Source: Bacteroidales bacterium
Lineage (GTDB): Bacteria; Bacteroidota; Bacteroidia; Bacteroidales; VadinHA17
Reading direction: 5' to 3'
DNA: 45,477 nt
NCBI GenBank assembly: GCA_012513795.1
Contig: JAAZBN010000214.1
Coordinates: 1-45,477, forward strand
Shown here: in pieces, positions 8,773 to 43,544 of the stretch
Layout: each line of letters opens with the position of its first letter
Numbering within the stretch: the stretch's first letter is position 1
Program-made: the position numbers and the translations under genes
The notes under the pieces: generated by a model
Seen by the model: only the letters and a program-made list of their open reading frames with translations
Databases searched by the model: none
Told to the model about the DNA's origin: nothing

Positions 8773-10881
8773 ATGATCAGTGCTAAATTATTGAATCCTA
8801 AAAGTATAGTCGTTGTCGGCGGATCAGACGACATCACCAAGGCTGGAGGCAAGGTACTCAAGAACCTTCTGAGCGGCGATTTTCCCGGTAGCCTTTATGT
8901 TGTAAATCCCAAAGCGACTGTTGTCCAGGGGCTGACGGCATATGCCGATGTGTCACTGGTTCCCCGTACCGACCTGGCAGTGATTGCCGTTGCTGCCCGC
9001 TATTGCCCGGGAATTGTCAGGACGCTGGCAACGGAGAAGGGCACTGGCGGATTCATTATTCTTTCTGCAGGATTCAGCGAGGAGAATGAGGAGGGAGCTG
9101 CCCTGGAAAAGGAGATTGTTGATATTATAAACAGTACCGGGGGTACTCTTATTGGCCCCAATTGCATAGGCTACCTCAACAATATTTATCACGGGGTCTT
9201 TACGGAGCCCATACCCAGGCTCTCGCCGCAGGGCATTGACTTCATCTCAGGCTCGGGGGCGACGGCTGTTTTTATTCTTGAAACGGCCATTACCGGAGGA
9301 CTTCCCTTCTCAAGCGTATGGTCGGTCGGCAACAGCGCTCAGACCGGTGTGGAGGATGTGCTGGAACACCTCGATAATACATTTGACCCGCTGACCAGTT
9401 CACGGATCAAACTACTGTATATTGAGAACATCGCAGATCCGCAGCGGTTCCTGAGGCACTCAGCCTCACTTATCAGAAAGGGGTGCAGGATTGCTGCCAT
9501 CAAGGCAGGTTCATCAGAGGCGGGGTCCAGGGCCGCATCATCACACACGGGAGCGATGGCTTCACCCGATACTGCAGTGGATGCGCTTTTGAGAAAGGCT
9601 GGTGTTGTAAGGTGCTACAGCCGTACCGACCTGGCTACAGTGGCTGCACTATTTACATATAAACCGCTTAAAGGAAAGAGAATTGCTATAGTAACACATG
9701 CCGGAGGCCCTGCTGTGATGCTGACCGATGCTCTCAGCGAGGGAGGGATGGAGATACCCCATCTGTCAGGACCGGAAGCAGAGAGGCTCCTGGAAAAACT
9801 TTTTCCGGGCTCATCGGTGGCTAACCCCATCGATTTTCTGGCCACAGGAACCGCCGAACAGCTCGGACATATTATTGATGCATGTGAAAACGACTTTAAC
9901 GAGATTGATGCTATTGCGGTCATCTTCGGCAGCCCGGGACTCTTTCCGGTGGATGATGTCTATAACCTGCTCCACGAAAAGATCCGCAGCTGCAAAAAAC
10001 CGGTTTATCCCGTCATGCCGTCAGTCATCAACGTGAAGAGGGAGATAGCTGATTTCATTGCCAGGGGCAATGCCATCTTCACTGACGAGGTGCTCTTTGG
10101 AAGGGCACTCTGCCGGGTCAACGCAACACCTGCCCCGGCAGTGCCGGAGAAAATGGAGGATGTCACGGCCGGATCATCTGATCTGAATGGCAGCTCTGCA
10201 CGAACTGACATGAGAGTGATCAGGGAGGTCATTGATGGCGCCGGAGACGGATACCTTCCGCCCGAAAAAGTCGGGCTACTATTAAGGGCTGCCGGCATTG
10301 AGACGGTGCCCGAGAGTGTTGTCACCTCTGCCGAAGAGGCCGTCAGGACTGCTGGCGCGATGGGTTACCCGGTAGTGATGAAGGTGGCAGGTCCGGTGCA
10401 TAAGTCAGATATTGGCGGGGTTGCACTGAACATCAGCGGAGAGGAGAGGGTCAGGGAGGAGTATGCGAGAATGATGGCACTTCCGGAAGTGACCGGTATA
10501 CTGATCCAAAAGATGATCAGCGGTAGCGAGCTCTTCTGCGGCGCCACCGCCGAGGGCCGCTTCGGCCACCTGGTGATGGCCGGTATGGGAGGGATATTTA
10601 TAGAGGTCTTTAAGGATGTGGCCACAGCGCTGATACCTGTCTCAGAAAATGAAGCCAGATCAATGATAAGGTCACTCAAGTCATATAAGATAATTAAGGG
10701 TGTGCGGGGTTCAGAAGGGGTCAACGAAGAGGCGTTTGCCAGGGTGATTACCTCTTTGTCGGACCTCCTTGCCCTGGCTCCGGAGATAGCCGAGATGGAT
10801 ATCAATCCGCTGCTGGGAACTCCTGATAAGATAGTTGCAGTGGACGCCAGGATAAGAGTCGGCAGTAAAGACAGAAAATAG
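8773..10881 (+). CDS. ADP-forming acetate/acyl-CoA ligase (fused alpha-beta, ACD family)
   Basis: CoA-binding N-terminus (LNPKSIVVVGGS, IGPNCIG), catalytic His in ASSHTGAMA, NPIDF, ATP-grasp (GYPVVMK, HKSDIGGV, MDINPL, DARI); no GNAT domain. Confidence 0.9.
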   Translation: MISAKLLNPKSIVVVGGSDDITKAGGKVLKNLLSGDFPGSLYVVNPKATVVQGLTAYADVSLVPRTDLAVIAVAARYCPGIVRTLATEKGTGGFIILSAGFSEENEEGAALEKEIVDIINSTGGTLIGPNCIGYLNNIYHGVFTEPIPRLSPQGIDFISGSGATAVFILETAITGGLPFSSVWSVGNSAQTGVEDVLEHLDNTFDPLTSSRIKLLYIENIADPQRFLRHSASLIRKGCRIAAIKAGSSEAGSRAASSHTGAMASPDTAVDALLRKAGVVRCYSRTDLATVAALFTYKPLKGKRIAIVTHAGGPAVMLTDALSEGGMEIPHLSGPEAERLLEKLFPGSSVANPIDFLATGTAEQLGHIIDACENDFNEIDAIAVIFGSPGLFPVDDVYNLLHEKIRSCKKPVYPVMPSVINVKREIADFIARGNAIFTDEVLFGRALCRVNATPAPAVPEKMEDVTAGSSDLNGSSARTDMRVIREVIDGAGDGYLPPEKVGLLLRAAGIETVPESVVTSAEEAVRTAGAMGYPVVMKVAGPVHKSDIGGVALNISGEERVREEYARMMALPEVTGILIQKMISGSELFCGATAEGRFGHLVMAGMGGIFIEVFKDVATALIPVSENEARSMIRSLKSYKIIKGVRGSEGVNEEAFARVITSLSDLLALAPEIAEMDINPLLGTPDKIVAVDARIRVGSKDRK

Positions 10882-11062
10882 AATCACATGGAAATTGGTT
10901 GTAGACCAATAAGAATTGTAGGAGACAGGCCCCGCCCACCCGCCCCTTTATTCCCGGGTGACATGTTTATACAATTCTTGATCCGCTTCGCGCATCCGGT
11001 CTGCAGTAAAGACAGAAAATTGAATCACATGGAAATTGGTCGTAGACCAATAAGAATTGTAG
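10862..11062 (+). repeat. 60-bp direct repeat (10862-10921 and 11003-11062, 2 mismatches)
   Basis: GCAGTAAAGACAGAAAAT(A/T)GAATCACATGGAAATTGGT(T/C)GTAGACCAATAAGAATTGTAG seen twice; the first copy includes the last codons and stop of the acyl-CoA ligase. Confidence 0.9.
10894..11061. repeat. Three copies of a 27-bp stem-GNA-stem-AAGAATTGTA element (10894-10920 +, 10970-10996 -, 11035-11061 +)
   Basis: ATTGGTT-GTA-GACCAAT-AAGAATTGTA; minus strand GATGCGC-GAA-GCGGATC-AAGAATTGTA; ATTGGTC-GTA-GACCAAT-AAGAATTGTA. Confidence 0.8.
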
Positions 11063-11089
11063 AATAGCATGCCCAAAACCCCAACCCCA

Positions 11090-11124
11090 AAATCGCAATT
11101 CGAAAATCGCAATTCGCAAATCCA
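11090..11124 (+). repeat. Heptamer tandem array (AAATCGC-like, 5 units)
   Basis: AAATCGC AATTCGA AAATCGC AATTCGC AAATCCA immediately before ATG 11126. Confidence 0.7.
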
Positions 11125-11125
11125 T

Positions 11126-11833
11126 ATGAAGCGTTCTGATATAATTTTTATTCTCGTTTTTGTCGGATTGTTTGTGCCGTTTTTCCTGTCTGACAAACTA
11201 TATGATTTCTTTATCTGGTTCAGTACCGAATGGGCTTTTACTGCAAGCTTCATGAAGTTTGCAATCCTTGCCACCATGGGCGAGATGCTCGGCAGCAGGA
11301 TCAGAACAGGCATTTACCTGCCGGCGGGTTTTGCACTGTTGTACCGGGCCGTTGTCTGGGGATTCCTCGGTATGACCGTCAAGGCAGCCTTCGTGATCTT
11401 CGCCGGCGGTACACCCCTGATATTGGAACACCTGGGCATGAAGAATGCCGCTGTGGTCATGGCTGGTCCGGTCACCGGCACCAGGGTGCTGCTTGCCTTT
11501 TCAATCAGCACATTCCTGAATATCTTTTATGCGCCGGTGCTGATGGTGACCCATCGTATCAGTGACCTTCATATTGCCTCCGCAGCAGGAGACAGGCGGA
11601 AGCTTCTGACTGTACCCGATGTGAAAGGATTGTTTGCATCAATCGACTGGAACAGCATGTGGGGTATTGTGCTGAAAAAGAGCATACCACTCTTCTGGAT
11701 ACCGGCACAGACAGTCAACTTCCTTCTCCCGGAAGAATTCAGGATCCTCATCGCCGCCCTCTACAGTACCGTGCTGGGAGTGATACTGGCGCTGGCTGCG
11801 GGAACAGGCAGGAAGCCGGAAGGTCTGAGGTAA
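11126..11833 (+). CDS. Mpv17/PMP22-like integral membrane protein
   Basis: Multiple hydrophobic helices; C-terminal FWIPAQTVNFLLPEEFRILIAALYSTVLGVILA resembles the Mpv17/PMP22 W-P-x-Q-xx-NF-xx-P-xx-R signature. Start set at MKRSD because the longer start runs through the heptamer repeat. Confidence 0.65.
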   Translation: MKRSDIIFILVFVGLFVPFFLSDKLYDFFIWFSTEWAFTASFMKFAILATMGEMLGSRIRTGIYLPAGFALLYRAVVWGFLGMTVKAAFVIFAGGTPLILEHLGMKNAAVVMAGPVTGTRVLLAFSISTFLNIFYAPVLMVTHRISDLHIASAAGDRRKLLTVPDVKGLFASIDWNSMWGIVLKKSIPLFWIPAQTVNFLLPEEFRILIAALYSTVLGVILALAAGTGRKPEGLR

Positions 11834-11907
11834 CTCGGTCTTGCTCTCTTGCGGTCAAAGGATCAGAACAGAAGGATTGCAAGACTGCATGACGGAGCGA
11901 AGCGACA

Positions 11908-12003
11908 GACCTTCCGACCTTCCGACCTTCCGACCTTTAGACCTTTAGACCTTTAGACCTTTGGACCTTTAGACCTTTGGACCCTTGTACCGTCAGACCT
12001 TTT
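11908..12003 (+). repeat. Octamer tandem array, 12 units of GACCTTNN
   Basis: GACCTTCC x3, GACCTTTA x3, GACCTTTG, GACCTTTA, GACCTTTG, GACCCTTG, TACCGTCA, GACCTTTT. Confidence 0.9.
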
Positions 12004-36581: not shown

Positions 36582-36827
36582 TTAGCGGGCAAGCATACTC
36601 TCTGCAAGATCAAGAATTGTAGTGTCTTCTATAGTGACTATGCCCCCTTCGGGTCCTTTTTCAATATGGATCCCGGCACTCTGCCCGCGATCAAAGTTCC
36701 AGCCTCCGAAATAGTTCCTGACGGTCTCCTCCTCCATGTCAAGCTTGTCAGCTATCTTTCTTATACTCCCGTCAGGAAGCCGGTCCTTGATCTTCCTCAA
36801 CTGTGAAAATGTCAGTGTTCGTGCCAT
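36582..36827 (-). CDS. Small putative DNA-binding (HTH-like) protein
   Basis: LPDGSIRKIADKLDMEEETVRNYFGG is HTH-like; flanked by its own -7 box (36852-36859, TATCTTTG) and terminator. Confidence 0.75.
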   Translation of the reverse strand: MARTLTFSQLRKIKDRLPDGSIRKIADKLDMEEETVRNYFGGWNFDRGQSAGIHIEKGPEGGIVTIEDTTILDLAESMLAR

Positions 36828-41071: not shown

Positions 41072-42895
41072 ATGAAGAGTATCAGGATACTTCTGCAGTA
41101 CCTCAGGCCTTACAAATGGCTCGCCGTGCAGAATATGGGATTTAACATCCTCAGTGCATTCTTCGCCCTCTTTACCTATACATTGATCGTCCCGTTCCTT
41201 CAGATACTGTTCAACAGGGTGGAGGCCGTTCCTGACCCGGGACCCTTTGCCTTTTCTGCTTCATATATCAAGGACTGGGCAAACTGGTACTTCTCTTCAT
41301 CCATAGACCGTTACGGCGAGATGAGAACCCTCCTTGTCGTGGTCATTGTCTTTGCTGCAGCCAGCTTCATCAAAAACCTGCTCATATTCCTTGCCAACAA
41401 CTGCATGGCCAGCCTCCGGGCAGGTACCGTCAGGGACGTCAGGAACCGGGTCTATAACAAGATATTGAAACTGCCGCTCTCATACTTCTCCGAAGCACGC
41501 AAGGGCGACCTGATGACCAGGGTGTCAAACGACGTTCAGGAGATAGAGGTGTCAGTGATGTCATCGCTCTCAATGCTCTTCCGTGATCCTTTTACCATCA
41601 TTATCTTCGTTACCTATCTCATTGTCACCAGCCCCCAGCTTACTCTCTTTGCGTTGCTCATGCTCCCCCTCAGCGGCTGGGCCATTGCACGTATCAGCCG
41701 CAGCCTCAAGAGCGCATCATTCATTGGGCAACAGGCACTGGGAAGGCTGCTGTCAGTGATGGAGGAGACACTTACGGGACTGCGCATCATAAAAGGATTC
41801 AATGCCGAGGAGAAGATGACTCGCCAGTTTGGCCTTGCCAACGAAAAGTTCACAAAAACCTTCCGGCGTGTGGCAAGGAAAGCCTATCTGGCACACCCTG
41901 TCAGCGAGTTCCTCTCCACTATAGTGCTGCTTATTGTAATCTATTACGGGGGTTACCTGGCATTGAAGGGGACCGGCAACATGTCTCCTGACAGACTGAT
42001 AGCGTTCGTGGTGGTCTTCTCCCAGATAATCCAGCCTGCCAAAGCTATCTCCAGCGCATGGTTCAGCATCCAGAAGGGAATGGCATCAATTGACCGTATC
42101 AACGAGGTGATGAATGCTGGTGAGACTATCACCGAGAAGCCTGATGCCATCAGGCTCACCGCCTTCAGGGAGAGCATTGAGTTCAGGAATGTGTGGTTTG
42201 CCTATAACCATGAACCGGTACTGAAAGATATCTCGCTCACAATCAGAAAGGGTCAGACGGTGGCGGTGGTAGGCCGTTCCGGCGGAGGAAAATCGACCCT
42301 GGTAGACCTGATACCGCGGTTCATTGATCCTGACAGTGGGGCAGTTTATATTGACGGAGTTGACCTGCGCGACGTGAACATCAAGGACCTGCGGCACCTG
42401 ATGGGTATTGTGAGCCAGCAGGCCATACTCTTCAATGACACCTTTTATAATAATATATCCTTTGCCCTGAACGGTGATGCAGGCATGGAGAGTGTGGTCA
42501 GGGCAGCAACGATAGCCAATGCGCACGAATTCATCAGTGAGACGCCGGAAGGATATCAGAACACAGTGGGTGAAGGGGGCAACAAGCTCAGCGGAGGCCA
42601 GAGACAGAGAATAAGCATCGCAAGAGCCATCATGGCCAATCCCCCTGTGCTGATCCTTGATGAGGCTACCTCGGCTCTCGATACCGAGTCGGAACGGCTT
42701 GTCCAGGATGCCATGCTAAGGCTGATGGAGAACCGCACTTCAGTAGTCATAGCCCACAGGCTCTCTACCATCCAGCATGCTGACCTGATAGTGGTTGTGG
42801 AGGAAGGCCGCATTGCGGAACAGGGCACCCATGAGGAGCTTATCAGGAACCCCTCGGGCATCTACAGAAAGCTGTACGAGATGCAGACCTTTTAG
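41072..42895 (+). CDS. ABC exporter, fused TMD-NBD (MsbA-like)
   Basis: N-terminal TM domain; GRSGGGKST, LSGGQRQR, LILDEATSALD, AHRLST. Confidence 0.92.
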   Translation: MKSIRILLQYLRPYKWLAVQNMGFNILSAFFALFTYTLIVPFLQILFNRVEAVPDPGPFAFSASYIKDWANWYFSSSIDRYGEMRTLLVVVIVFAAASFIKNLLIFLANNCMASLRAGTVRDVRNRVYNKILKLPLSYFSEARKGDLMTRVSNDVQEIEVSVMSSLSMLFRDPFTIIIFVTYLIVTSPQLTLFALLMLPLSGWAIARISRSLKSASFIGQQALGRLLSVMEETLTGLRIIKGFNAEEKMTRQFGLANEKFTKTFRRVARKAYLAHPVSEFLSTIVLLIVIYYGGYLALKGTGNMSPDRLIAFVVVFSQIIQPAKAISSAWFSIQKGMASIDRINEVMNAGETITEKPDAIRLTAFRESIEFRNVWFAYNHEPVLKDISLTIRKGQTVAVVGRSGGGKSTLVDLIPRFIDPDSGAVYIDGVDLRDVNIKDLRHLMGIVSQQAILFNDTFYNNISFALNGDAGMESVVRAATIANAHEFISETPEGYQNTVGEGGNKLSGGQRQRISIARAIMANPPVLILDEATSALDTESERLVQDAMLRLMENRTSVVIAHRLSTIQHADLIVVVEEGRIAEQGTHEELIRNPSGIYRKLYEMQTF

Positions 42896-42921
42896 GATTT
42901 GCGATTTGCGATTGTCGATTT
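42894..42921 (-). repeat. Heptamer tandem array (AAATCGC-like on the minus strand, 4 units)
   Basis: Plus strand AGGATTT GCGATTT GCGATTG TCGATTT, starting at the ABC gene stop codon. Confidence 0.65.
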
Positions 42922-42995
42922 TCGTCGTAGACGATACAGAATTGTATATGGCTGTGAAATACCATTAAATTCGTCGTAGACGATACAGAATTGTA
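42920..42995 (+). repeat. Two copies of the 27-bp stem-GTA-stem-CAGAATTGTA element (42920-42946, 42969-42995)
   Basis: TTCGTCGTAGACGATACAGAATTGTA (26 bp) repeated exactly, with a 23-bp spacer. Confidence 0.85.
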
Positions 42996-43037: not shown

Positions 43038-43544
43038 ATGGATACAAAAACCACCACTGACATTCTGAAGGAAGCCATCCTGCTTGAACACCGGGGCAGG
43101 GCATTCTATACCAGCGTTGCTGCCCAGACCGGCTGCGATGCTGTGAGGAGGATATTTACAATCATTGCGAACGAGGAGCAGGAGCACATTCGCTTCCTGT
43201 CAGATCAGTTCAGACACTATCAGAAGCATCACTCCTTTATGAATTTGGAATCACATACAGGCCGGCCGGATGATGAGGTTGCTACCCAGGTCCTCTCCGA
43301 AGAGATGAAGGGTCAGATCAGTGCTGCAGGATTTGAAGCCGCTGCCATCAGTGCTGCAATGGATTTTGAATCAAAGGCCGTTGAGCTCTACTCATCGCGA
43401 GCGGAGGCAGCCACTGACGAGAATGAGAAAGCACTTTACTGCATGCTGGCGGACTGGGAAAGGGGGCACCACCAGTGGCTGGCCCGGATTGATAAGGAAC
43501 TGAGGGAGCAGGTGTGGTACGATAATAATTTCTGGCCCTTCTAG
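43038..43544 (+). CDS. Ferritin-like (rubrerythrin-type di-iron) protein without rubredoxin domain
   Basis: AILLE...FY...ANEEQEH and AMDFE...LY...ADWERGH: two E...ExxH repeats. Confidence 0.85.
   Translation: MDTKTTTDILKEAILLEHRGRAFYTSVAAQTGCDAVRRIFTIIANEEQEHIRFLSDQFRHYQKHHSFMNLESHTGRPDDEVATQVLSEEMKGQISAAGFEAAAISAAMDFESKAVELYSSRAEAATDENEKALYCMLADWERGHHQWLARIDKELREQVWYDNNFWPF

Follow-up and report, generated by a model that had tools for sequence, protein, structure and literature searches.

REP/RAYT systems are textbook matter for Proteobacteria, and to our knowledge they have been little described for Bacteroidota. In the available text of Di Nocera et al. (2013, PMC3733652), GTAG-tagged REPs are assigned to Proteobacteria, Cyanobacteria, Chloroflexi and the PVC group, while Bacteroidetes appear there only with CGTC repeats. 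The TnpA-Y1 enzymes are treated by Quentin et al. (2018, PMC6006769), and the accessible portion of that survey gives the signature of subclass 1.2 as DH[IV]H, WQ and Y---Q--HH and characterizes it as a low-copy group from Bacteroidetes and Cyanobacteria without IS properties, with "no" entered for the REP partner in Table 1. The automatic REP descriptor of the same work, as given in that portion, looks for GTAG or GTGG 0-2 nt 5' of a GC-rich stem. Class 3 TnpA-Y1, from Solibacter usitatus, is presented there with high-copy atypical hairpins, as an intermediate between IS and REPtron. In IS608, according to the available text of He et al. (2013, PMC3597680), the right end is cleaved 10 nt downstream (3') of its hairpin and the left end 19 nt upstream (5').

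Here, a family of dispersed hairpins from a Bacteroidales genome is compared with these systems. In our reading, to which we assign a probability of roughly 0.78, the element is REP-like and its partner is a single-copy, vertically inherited IS200-related HUH/Y1 enzyme of 163 aa with the motifs of subclass 1.2.

Copies of the element in the window

The window, i.e. the whole stretch of DNA that was analysed, is a contig of 45,477 nt (C176) from a 3.13-Mb draft assembly (317 contigs, 88% complete). The initial annotation described in it five copies of a 27-bp element consisting of a 7-bp stem, a GNA triloop and a fixed tail; their coordinates, strands and sequences are all correct, and so are, as read from the sequence, the counts of 5-7 pairs out of seven and the closure of the loop by C-G in four copies of the five.

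Three of these copies form a cluster. Copy 1 (10894..10920, plus strand; ATTGGTT-GTA-GACCAAT-AAGAATTGTA) has a T·G closing pair and a DNA fold of -4.3 kcal/mol, and it starts 12 nt past the stop codon of ORF 8773-10881, within a duplicated 64-nt segment. Copy 2 is inverted (10970..10996, minus strand; GATGCGC-GAA-GCGGATC-AAGAATTGTA), with the GAA loop, six pairs of seven and a DNA fold of -4.8 kcal/mol, while for copy 3 (11035..11061, plus strand; ATTGGTC-GTA-GACCAAT-AAGAATTGTA) the fold is -5.1 kcal/mol (z -5.3). Two 64-nt arms of a direct repeat, 95% identical to each other (10858..10921 and 10999..11062, both on the plus strand), constitute a 141-bp duplication, which also carries the inverted copy 2 in the 77 nt separating the arms. 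Copies 1 and 3 are not independent, since they belong to the arms of this duplication. The flanks and the position of copy 3 are common to it and to the single copy found in G075 and G046; on this sequence comparison, copy 3 is the ancestral copy of its locus.

Through the same duplication, the acyl-CoA synthetase-like ORF 8773-10881 has acquired a formerly non-coding segment (10858-10881) as its 3' terminus. Its last 8 codons and the stop codon come from the first arm (10858-10921), and therefore the last five residues are unlike those of the closest relative, G075.

The remaining two copies are arranged head-to-tail. Copy 4 (42920..42946, plus strand; TTTCGTC-GTA-GACGATA-CAGAATTGTA) lies 24 nt past the stop codon of the ABC-transporter ORF 41072-42895, and copy 5 (42969..42995, plus strand; ATTCGTC-GTA-GACGATA-CAGAATTGTA) lies 42 nt before the start of the rubrerythrin-like ORF 43038-43544. 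The spacer between them (42947..42968, plus strand) has 22 nt, which gives a period of 49 nt, and this spacer recurs, with a different stem alongside, in a further array of the genome, at contig ends C115/C203. DNA folds of the window copies range from -3.8 to -5.1 kcal/mol.

The genes beside the copies are ordinary ones, encoding an ADP-forming acyl-CoA synthetase-like protein (8773-10881), the ABC transporter and the rubrerythrin-like protein; ORF 11126-11833, also adjacent, is without a Pfam match. The string AGAATTGTA occurs six times in the window versus 0.17 expected, and six occurrences are reached in none of 100 shuffles. The sixth match (36613) is not a member of the family, being located inside ORF 36582-36827 on the minus strand, without a hairpin.

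Intergenic tandem repeats with an 8-nt unit are also observed in the window, at 11899-12002 (GACCTT[TC]N, 13 units), 11083-11123 (AAATCGCA type) and 42895-42919 (GATTTGCG type). In genus-mates, such 8-mers (GGCAGTCG, GGCAGTAG, GCAAATCG, GGTCTTGC) abound in the orthologous intergenic regions, their copy number differing between species, and element copies often directly adjoin them.

The repeat family in the genome

Copies of the element are not limited to the window. In the 3.13 Mb of the genome, AGAATTGTA is found 141 times, and the filtered family (at least five pairs, a GNA-like loop, a tail with at most one mismatch) comprises 148 copies in 45 loci, the general form being a 7-bp stem, the GTA loop, the second half of the stem and AAGAATTGTA(G). 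Among 87,464 hairpins of the 7-3-7 geometry, AAGAATTGTA is the most frequent 10-nt 3' flank (112 occurrences versus 14 for the next one), and AGAATTGTA directly follows 102 of 1,216 hairpins with the GTA loop. The logo is (G)AT[G/C][C/G][T/C]C-GTA-G[A/G][G/C][C/G]AT-N-AAGAATTGTA-(G/A)AA, so that the element can be written as (G)AT-NNN-C GTA G-NNN-AT-N AAGAATTGTA (G/A)AA with a length of 27-30 nt. Upstream of the hairpin there is no conservation, and downstream it fades three bases beyond the tail; the earlier statement that conservation ends at TTGTA is broadly right, except for the weak G/A-A-A directly after it.

For the structure, 147 copies were aligned without gaps, which gave 131 distinct rows; about five rows look like chance hits (L220, L222, L225, L235, L261) and were kept. 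In this alignment, 93.6% of the stem cells are paired compared to 66.0% in shuffles, and there are 232 both-side stem changes compared to 79. The covariation score is 0.676 versus 0.205 in shuffles and is reached by none of 500 of them, the slid controls giving 0.04-0.18. Our analysis has thus shown that the hairpin is under selection for pairing, as the initial annotation proposed in calling it a structure-selected hairpin with a fixed flank, and that the repeats constitute a genuine family with a pronounced structure. Moreover, G·T wobbles in the stems are more frequent than A·C mismatches (40 versus 17), and therefore the fold is favoured on the strand bearing the GTA loop and the tail (the top strand).

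The copies are predominantly intergenic: 111 of 148 lie outside crude ORFs, though crude ORFs cover 91% of the genome, and spurious ORFs running through arrays probably account for the other 37. Copies located between co-directional genes follow the orientation of these genes in 26 cases and are opposed to it in five. This bias fits a role in RNA as well as it fits an enzyme substrate, and it is a point against the enzyme reading. The copies could be kept mainly for a host function, such as protection of mRNA 3' ends, tuning of the next gene or binding of host proteins, with the link to the Y1 enzyme being secondary. Besides the shared direction of 26 copies out of 31, this agrees with the position of copies just past stop codons and just before start codons and with the excess of G·T wobbles over A·C mismatches, and such roles of REPs are discussed in the available text of Di Nocera et al. 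(2013, PMC3733652). Still, no T run follows the hairpin, and at five loci searched against Rfam at E up to 1 no RNA family matches the element, the only hit being a tRNA. Host function alone also leaves unexplained that tail variants track enzyme clades and that copies decay at sites lacking the enzyme (see below). We consider it unlikely as the main cause, the host-function and enzyme readings being compatible with each other and not exclusive.

Most neighbouring copies form direct arrays, 92 of 103 pairs being head-to-tail, eight head-to-head and three tail-to-tail. Head-to-tail distances are 47-53 nt in 57 of the 92 pairs, and the array period is 49-51 nt. The 75 head-to-tail spacers, with the most frequent length of 22-24 nt, fall into 50 sequence clusters, six of which are found on more than one contig. 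Uniform length and diversity of the spacers, together with the 27-nt repeats, give the arrays a CRISPR-like appearance; however, stems within one array differ by compensatory changes, unlike CRISPR repeats, many copies are solitary, and the spacers in several arrays are near-copies of one another, so that a CRISPR-like nature of the arrays has a negligible probability. In copies with the same core at different loci, the common sequence ends about 7 nt either side, and extending the similarity between such copies yielded no longer mobile unit common to the whole family.

Arrays are frequent at contig ends, where 41 copies are situated within 300 nt, at 14 of the 634 ends; therefore, the true copy number is probably higher than the one counted. 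The contigs of this assembly that start or end inside element arrays include C7, C12, C133, C197, C203 and C246. The element repeats appear to account for part of the fragmentation of such assemblies.

Five orthologous loci were compared between species: the two window loci and those on contigs C303, C75 and C50, the latter being alignable in two relatives only. At both window loci, C303 and C75, the copy number and the stems differ between species, and some species have a tail variant of their own there, while others have no copy at all. A clean pair of empty and filled sites with exact breakpoints was found at none of the five loci, where species are only about 75-90% identical, and these comparisons revealed no event of cleavage, excision or insertion.

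The Y1 enzyme and its distribution in the genus

A search with the PF01797 profile in five element-rich genus-mates revealed a match (72-76 bits, 163-174 aa) in four of them (G074, G075, G021 and G076). The initial annotation suggested that the hairpins are recognized by an HUH/Y1 enzyme of the IS200 or RAYT kind, and this is supported, at the level of sequence, by the IS200-related Y1 gene flanked by inverted element copies in these four congeneric genomes. The copies are present on both sides of the gene in G074, G021 and G076, while in G075 one side has element-like copies that are either degenerate or some 0.9 kb off. The alternatives offered by the same annotation, i.e. a diversity-generating retroelement (DGR) or a cassette-mobilising system, are unsupported, as neither a reverse transcriptase nor an integrase is present at the enzyme loci examined.

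The protein from G074 has the motifs DHIH, WQ and YIRDQDKHH, and residues H56, H58, W96, Q97, Y116, Q120, H123 and H124 are invariant in all 18 aligned homologues; in two of the 18, the first His is preceded by S or N. By these motifs, the enzyme can be assigned to TnpA-Y1 subclass 1.2 (DHIH, WQ, Y---Q--HH). A profile of the 18 homologues matches, among PDB sequences, the IS608 TnpA (2a6m, E 8e-10) and the ISDra2 transposase (E about 1e-9), and does not match E. coli TnpA-REP at E 0.01; the single 163-aa protein yields nothing among PDB sequences at E 0.01 (phmmer).

In the sample of 65 genomes of the genus, at least nine copies of the element are found in G000, the source genome (111), G075 (83), G074 (64), G021 (62), G005 (41), G076 (34), G067 (21) and G003 (9), one to three copies in eleven genomes, and none in 46. 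Orthologues of the enzyme with at least 78% identity are present in G074 (64 copies), G076 (34), G021 (62), G075 (83), G068 (3) and G003 (9), and in none of the 46 genomes without copies; the genomes of a genus are kin and their counts are not independent, so that this co-distribution overstates the support. For the orthologues from G068 and G003, no canonical copy was found within 1.5 kb. Outside the genus, 16 further families of the order, represented by one genome each, contain one chance-level match in total.

All six orthologues adjoin the same neighbour gene, and in three of them tRNA-Val is on the other side. In the three element-rich genomes without the gene, a contig end falls at this syntenic site: in the source genome, C203 ends 270 nt beyond the neighbour gene, in an element array; in G005, contig C26 ends inside an element copy; and in G067, the contig ends within the neighbour gene. 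Where the site is intact and the enzyme absent, element copies are shown to decay: in G046 and G073, only degenerate remnants remain at this place, and the genome counts are three and one.

The initial annotation placed the enzyme outside the window, and indeed the window contains no such gene. In the whole source assembly, a gene of the subclass 1.2 type was not found either (PF01797 search; best tblastn E 4.1), because the syntenic site falls on the contig break inside the element array. Synteny and the position of the break point to the gap that follows contig C203 as the most likely place of the gene in the source genome.

The source assembly has a single Y1 gene, an ORF of 252 aa (G000:C279:14104-14859; PF01797, 40 bits; REP_Tyr_transpos, 79.1 versus the cut-off of 80). 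It was rejected as the partner: no element is situated within 1.5 kb, the ORF is present in only two of the 61 genus genomes searched (G000 and G003), and its motifs, NHVH, WE and YIHMN, fit subclass 2.1, which is reported without REPs. This ORF (locus L001, 1462-2220) resembles subclass 2.1, or RAYT group 1, and is unrelated to the 163-aa enzyme.

The Y1 gene and the hairpins might also be seen as an ordinary active IS200-type insertion sequence, with the dispersed copies being its solo ends or miniature derivatives. In line with this, the best NCBIfam match of the enzyme is transpos_IS200 (50.3 bits versus the cut-off of 55), its best matches among solved structures are the transposases of IS608 and ISDra2, and the hairpin followed by a 10-nt tail resembles the right end of IS608. 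However, each of the six species with a close orthologue has a single match, always at the same syntenic site; the copies beside the gene are in inverted orientation, while the IS200/IS605 ends are on one strand; and copies with the same core at different loci have only about 7 nt in common either side. Moreover, subclass 1.2 is described without IS properties in the available text of Quentin et al. (2018, PMC6006769). Such an insertion sequence is thus very unlikely, and we prefer the REP-like element with a vertically inherited enzyme. The low copy number concerns the close orthologues: order-wide, some genomes hold up to 12 matches to the enzyme family.

More distant homologues have hairpins of their own. 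The genus-mates with homologues of 62-69% identity contain zero copies of AAGAATTGTA, and the hairpins flanking the homologues there are of the 7-GTA-7 type and have A(A/G)GTATTGTAG tails, namely AAGTATTGTAG, AGGTATTGTAG or CAGTATTGTAG. The variant-tail hairpins are dispersed over the genomes (111 copies in G070, 46 in G004 and 38 in G015), while the backwards-pattern controls give 0-1, and they are also found in two genomes of other families (13 copies each in G119 and G260). The tail variants are thus shown to go together with enzyme clades.

Comparison with known systems and distribution in the order

The system shares many features with the REP/BIME elements and TnpA-REP (RAYT) of the E. 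coli REPtron and with the REPIN-RAYT of Pseudomonas. As in these, a conserved GTAG accompanies short extragenic hairpins, which number from tens to hundreds and vary in the stem by compensatory changes; the Y1 HUH gene, single-copy and inherited vertically, is located between inverted copies (G074, G076, G021 and partly G075); the repeat variants track enzyme lineages; and copies decay upon loss of the enzyme. The differences are as follows. GTA(G) lies 7 nt 3' of the stem here, whereas the GTAG/GTGG of classical REPs is on the 5' side, 0-2 nt before the foot of the hairpin; in this family, the three nucleotides preceding the hairpin are unconserved. The basal part of the stem is AT-rich, again unlike classical REPs. 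Arrays are head-to-tail in 92 of 103 neighbouring pairs, whereas REPINs and BIMEs are mainly inverted dimers. Finally, all 18 homologues of the enzyme have the class 1 signature Y---Q--HH, and not Y---NP of the REP enzymes (class 2). The system is best read as one that works like a REPtron or REPIN-RAYT, failing three defining features of classical REPs.

As in the right end of IS608 and other IS200/IS605 elements, the hairpin is formed on one strand and is followed by a linker of about 10 nt ending at the edge of conservation, and the enzyme is closest to the transposases of these elements. Unlike in them, there is no transposon body between two ends on the same strand, the enzyme gene is single-copy and syntenic, and no conserved 5' guide tetranucleotide is observed. 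The family can be regarded as standing midway between REPs and the ends of IS200.

If the enzyme behaves like TnpA of IS608 and TnpA-REP of E. coli, it would bind the hairpin formed by the top strand in its single-stranded state, and it may cut where the 10-11-nt tail ends on its 3' side, following TTGTA or TGTAG. Binding and cutting, if they proceed as in these relatives, could let the enzyme copy, move or maintain the units. The 10-nt tail matches the right-end linker of IS608, and the 22-24-nt array spacer is close to the 19-nt left-end linker; in arrays, putative cut sites would thus lie on both sides of each hairpin at distances comparable to those of IS608, from which the fixed array period could follow, as a matter of speculation. 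Two observations speak against a strict IS608 model: the four nucleotides before the hairpin are unconserved, with no guide tetranucleotide evident at the 5' foot, and the copies around the enzyme gene are inverted.

With subclass 1.2 the enzyme shares the motifs, the length of about 150-165 aa, the low copy number and the occurrence in Bacteroidetes. The subclass as surveyed has no REP-like partner, whereas the genes studied here are flanked by a genome-dispersed hairpin family. This family, with GTAG 3' of the stem and an AT-rich stem base, would escape the descriptor of Quentin et al.; neither TTGTAG nor ATTGTA occurs in the two text supplementary files of that survey (PMC6006769). Class 3 TnpA-Y1 is similar in that the Y motif of the enzyme is class-1-like and atypical, high-copy hairpins are found on its flanks; here, however, the enzyme class and the phyla are different, and the 5' CnGA foot of class 3 is replaced by a 3' tail ending in GTAG.

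No description of the family or of its pairing with subclass 1.2 was found in the literature searched, most subscription journals being outside the reach of the search. The initial annotation called the system undescribed, which is too strong for the kind, since REP/RAYT REPtrons are known, and fair for the family and its enzyme pairing. Subclass 1.2, listed without a repeat partner in the accessible portion of the survey (PMC6006769), gains a candidate DNA substrate with defined rules (a 7-bp stem, the GTA loop, a fixed 10-nt tail and a fixed array period), in which one tail base differs between enzyme clades. Hence, the function of an orphan enzyme subclass becomes directly testable in vitro.

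The enzyme family is present in 165 of 301 genomes of the order. Among 30 order-level loci, 13 carry 7-GNA-7 hairpins followed by N5-7 GTA[GA] (38 hits), compared to two hits in two loci in the reversed-sequence control; at the other 17, no hairpin was found under the fixed 7-3-7 geometry. It is possible, albeit doubtful, that subclass 1.2 enzymes run their own REP-like class across Bacteroidales. Its units would be right-end-only (the hairpin and a 10-nt tail ending in GTAG), and the mobile or amplifying unit would be single-stranded DNA of 49-51 nt, released by cuts at one tail and the next, which would make it the smallest unit described to be mobilised by an HUH enzyme.

One locus from another family of the order, L196 (G031:C26), has 11 head-to-tail copies directly adjoining the Y1 homologue. 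This array has the GGA loop, the ATGTATTGTAGGA tail, a period of 48-49 nt and two alternating stems; therefore, the fixed period is not peculiar to the source genus.

In public genomes, among the matches listed, the exact pattern is found in several Bacteroidales/Bacteroidetes MAGs, often many times per genome. At least five exact copies, arrayed on one contig, are among the matches listed for L052, a MAG labelled as Proteobacteria, and at least two, likewise on one contig, for L019, a MAG labelled as Bacillota; these arrays could be mis-binned Bacteroidales contigs or transfers. Eight Winogradskyella records (L010, L018, L027, L036, L039, L064, L071, L081) have, among the matches listed, one exact match per genome, which looks like a single conserved site and not a repeat family.
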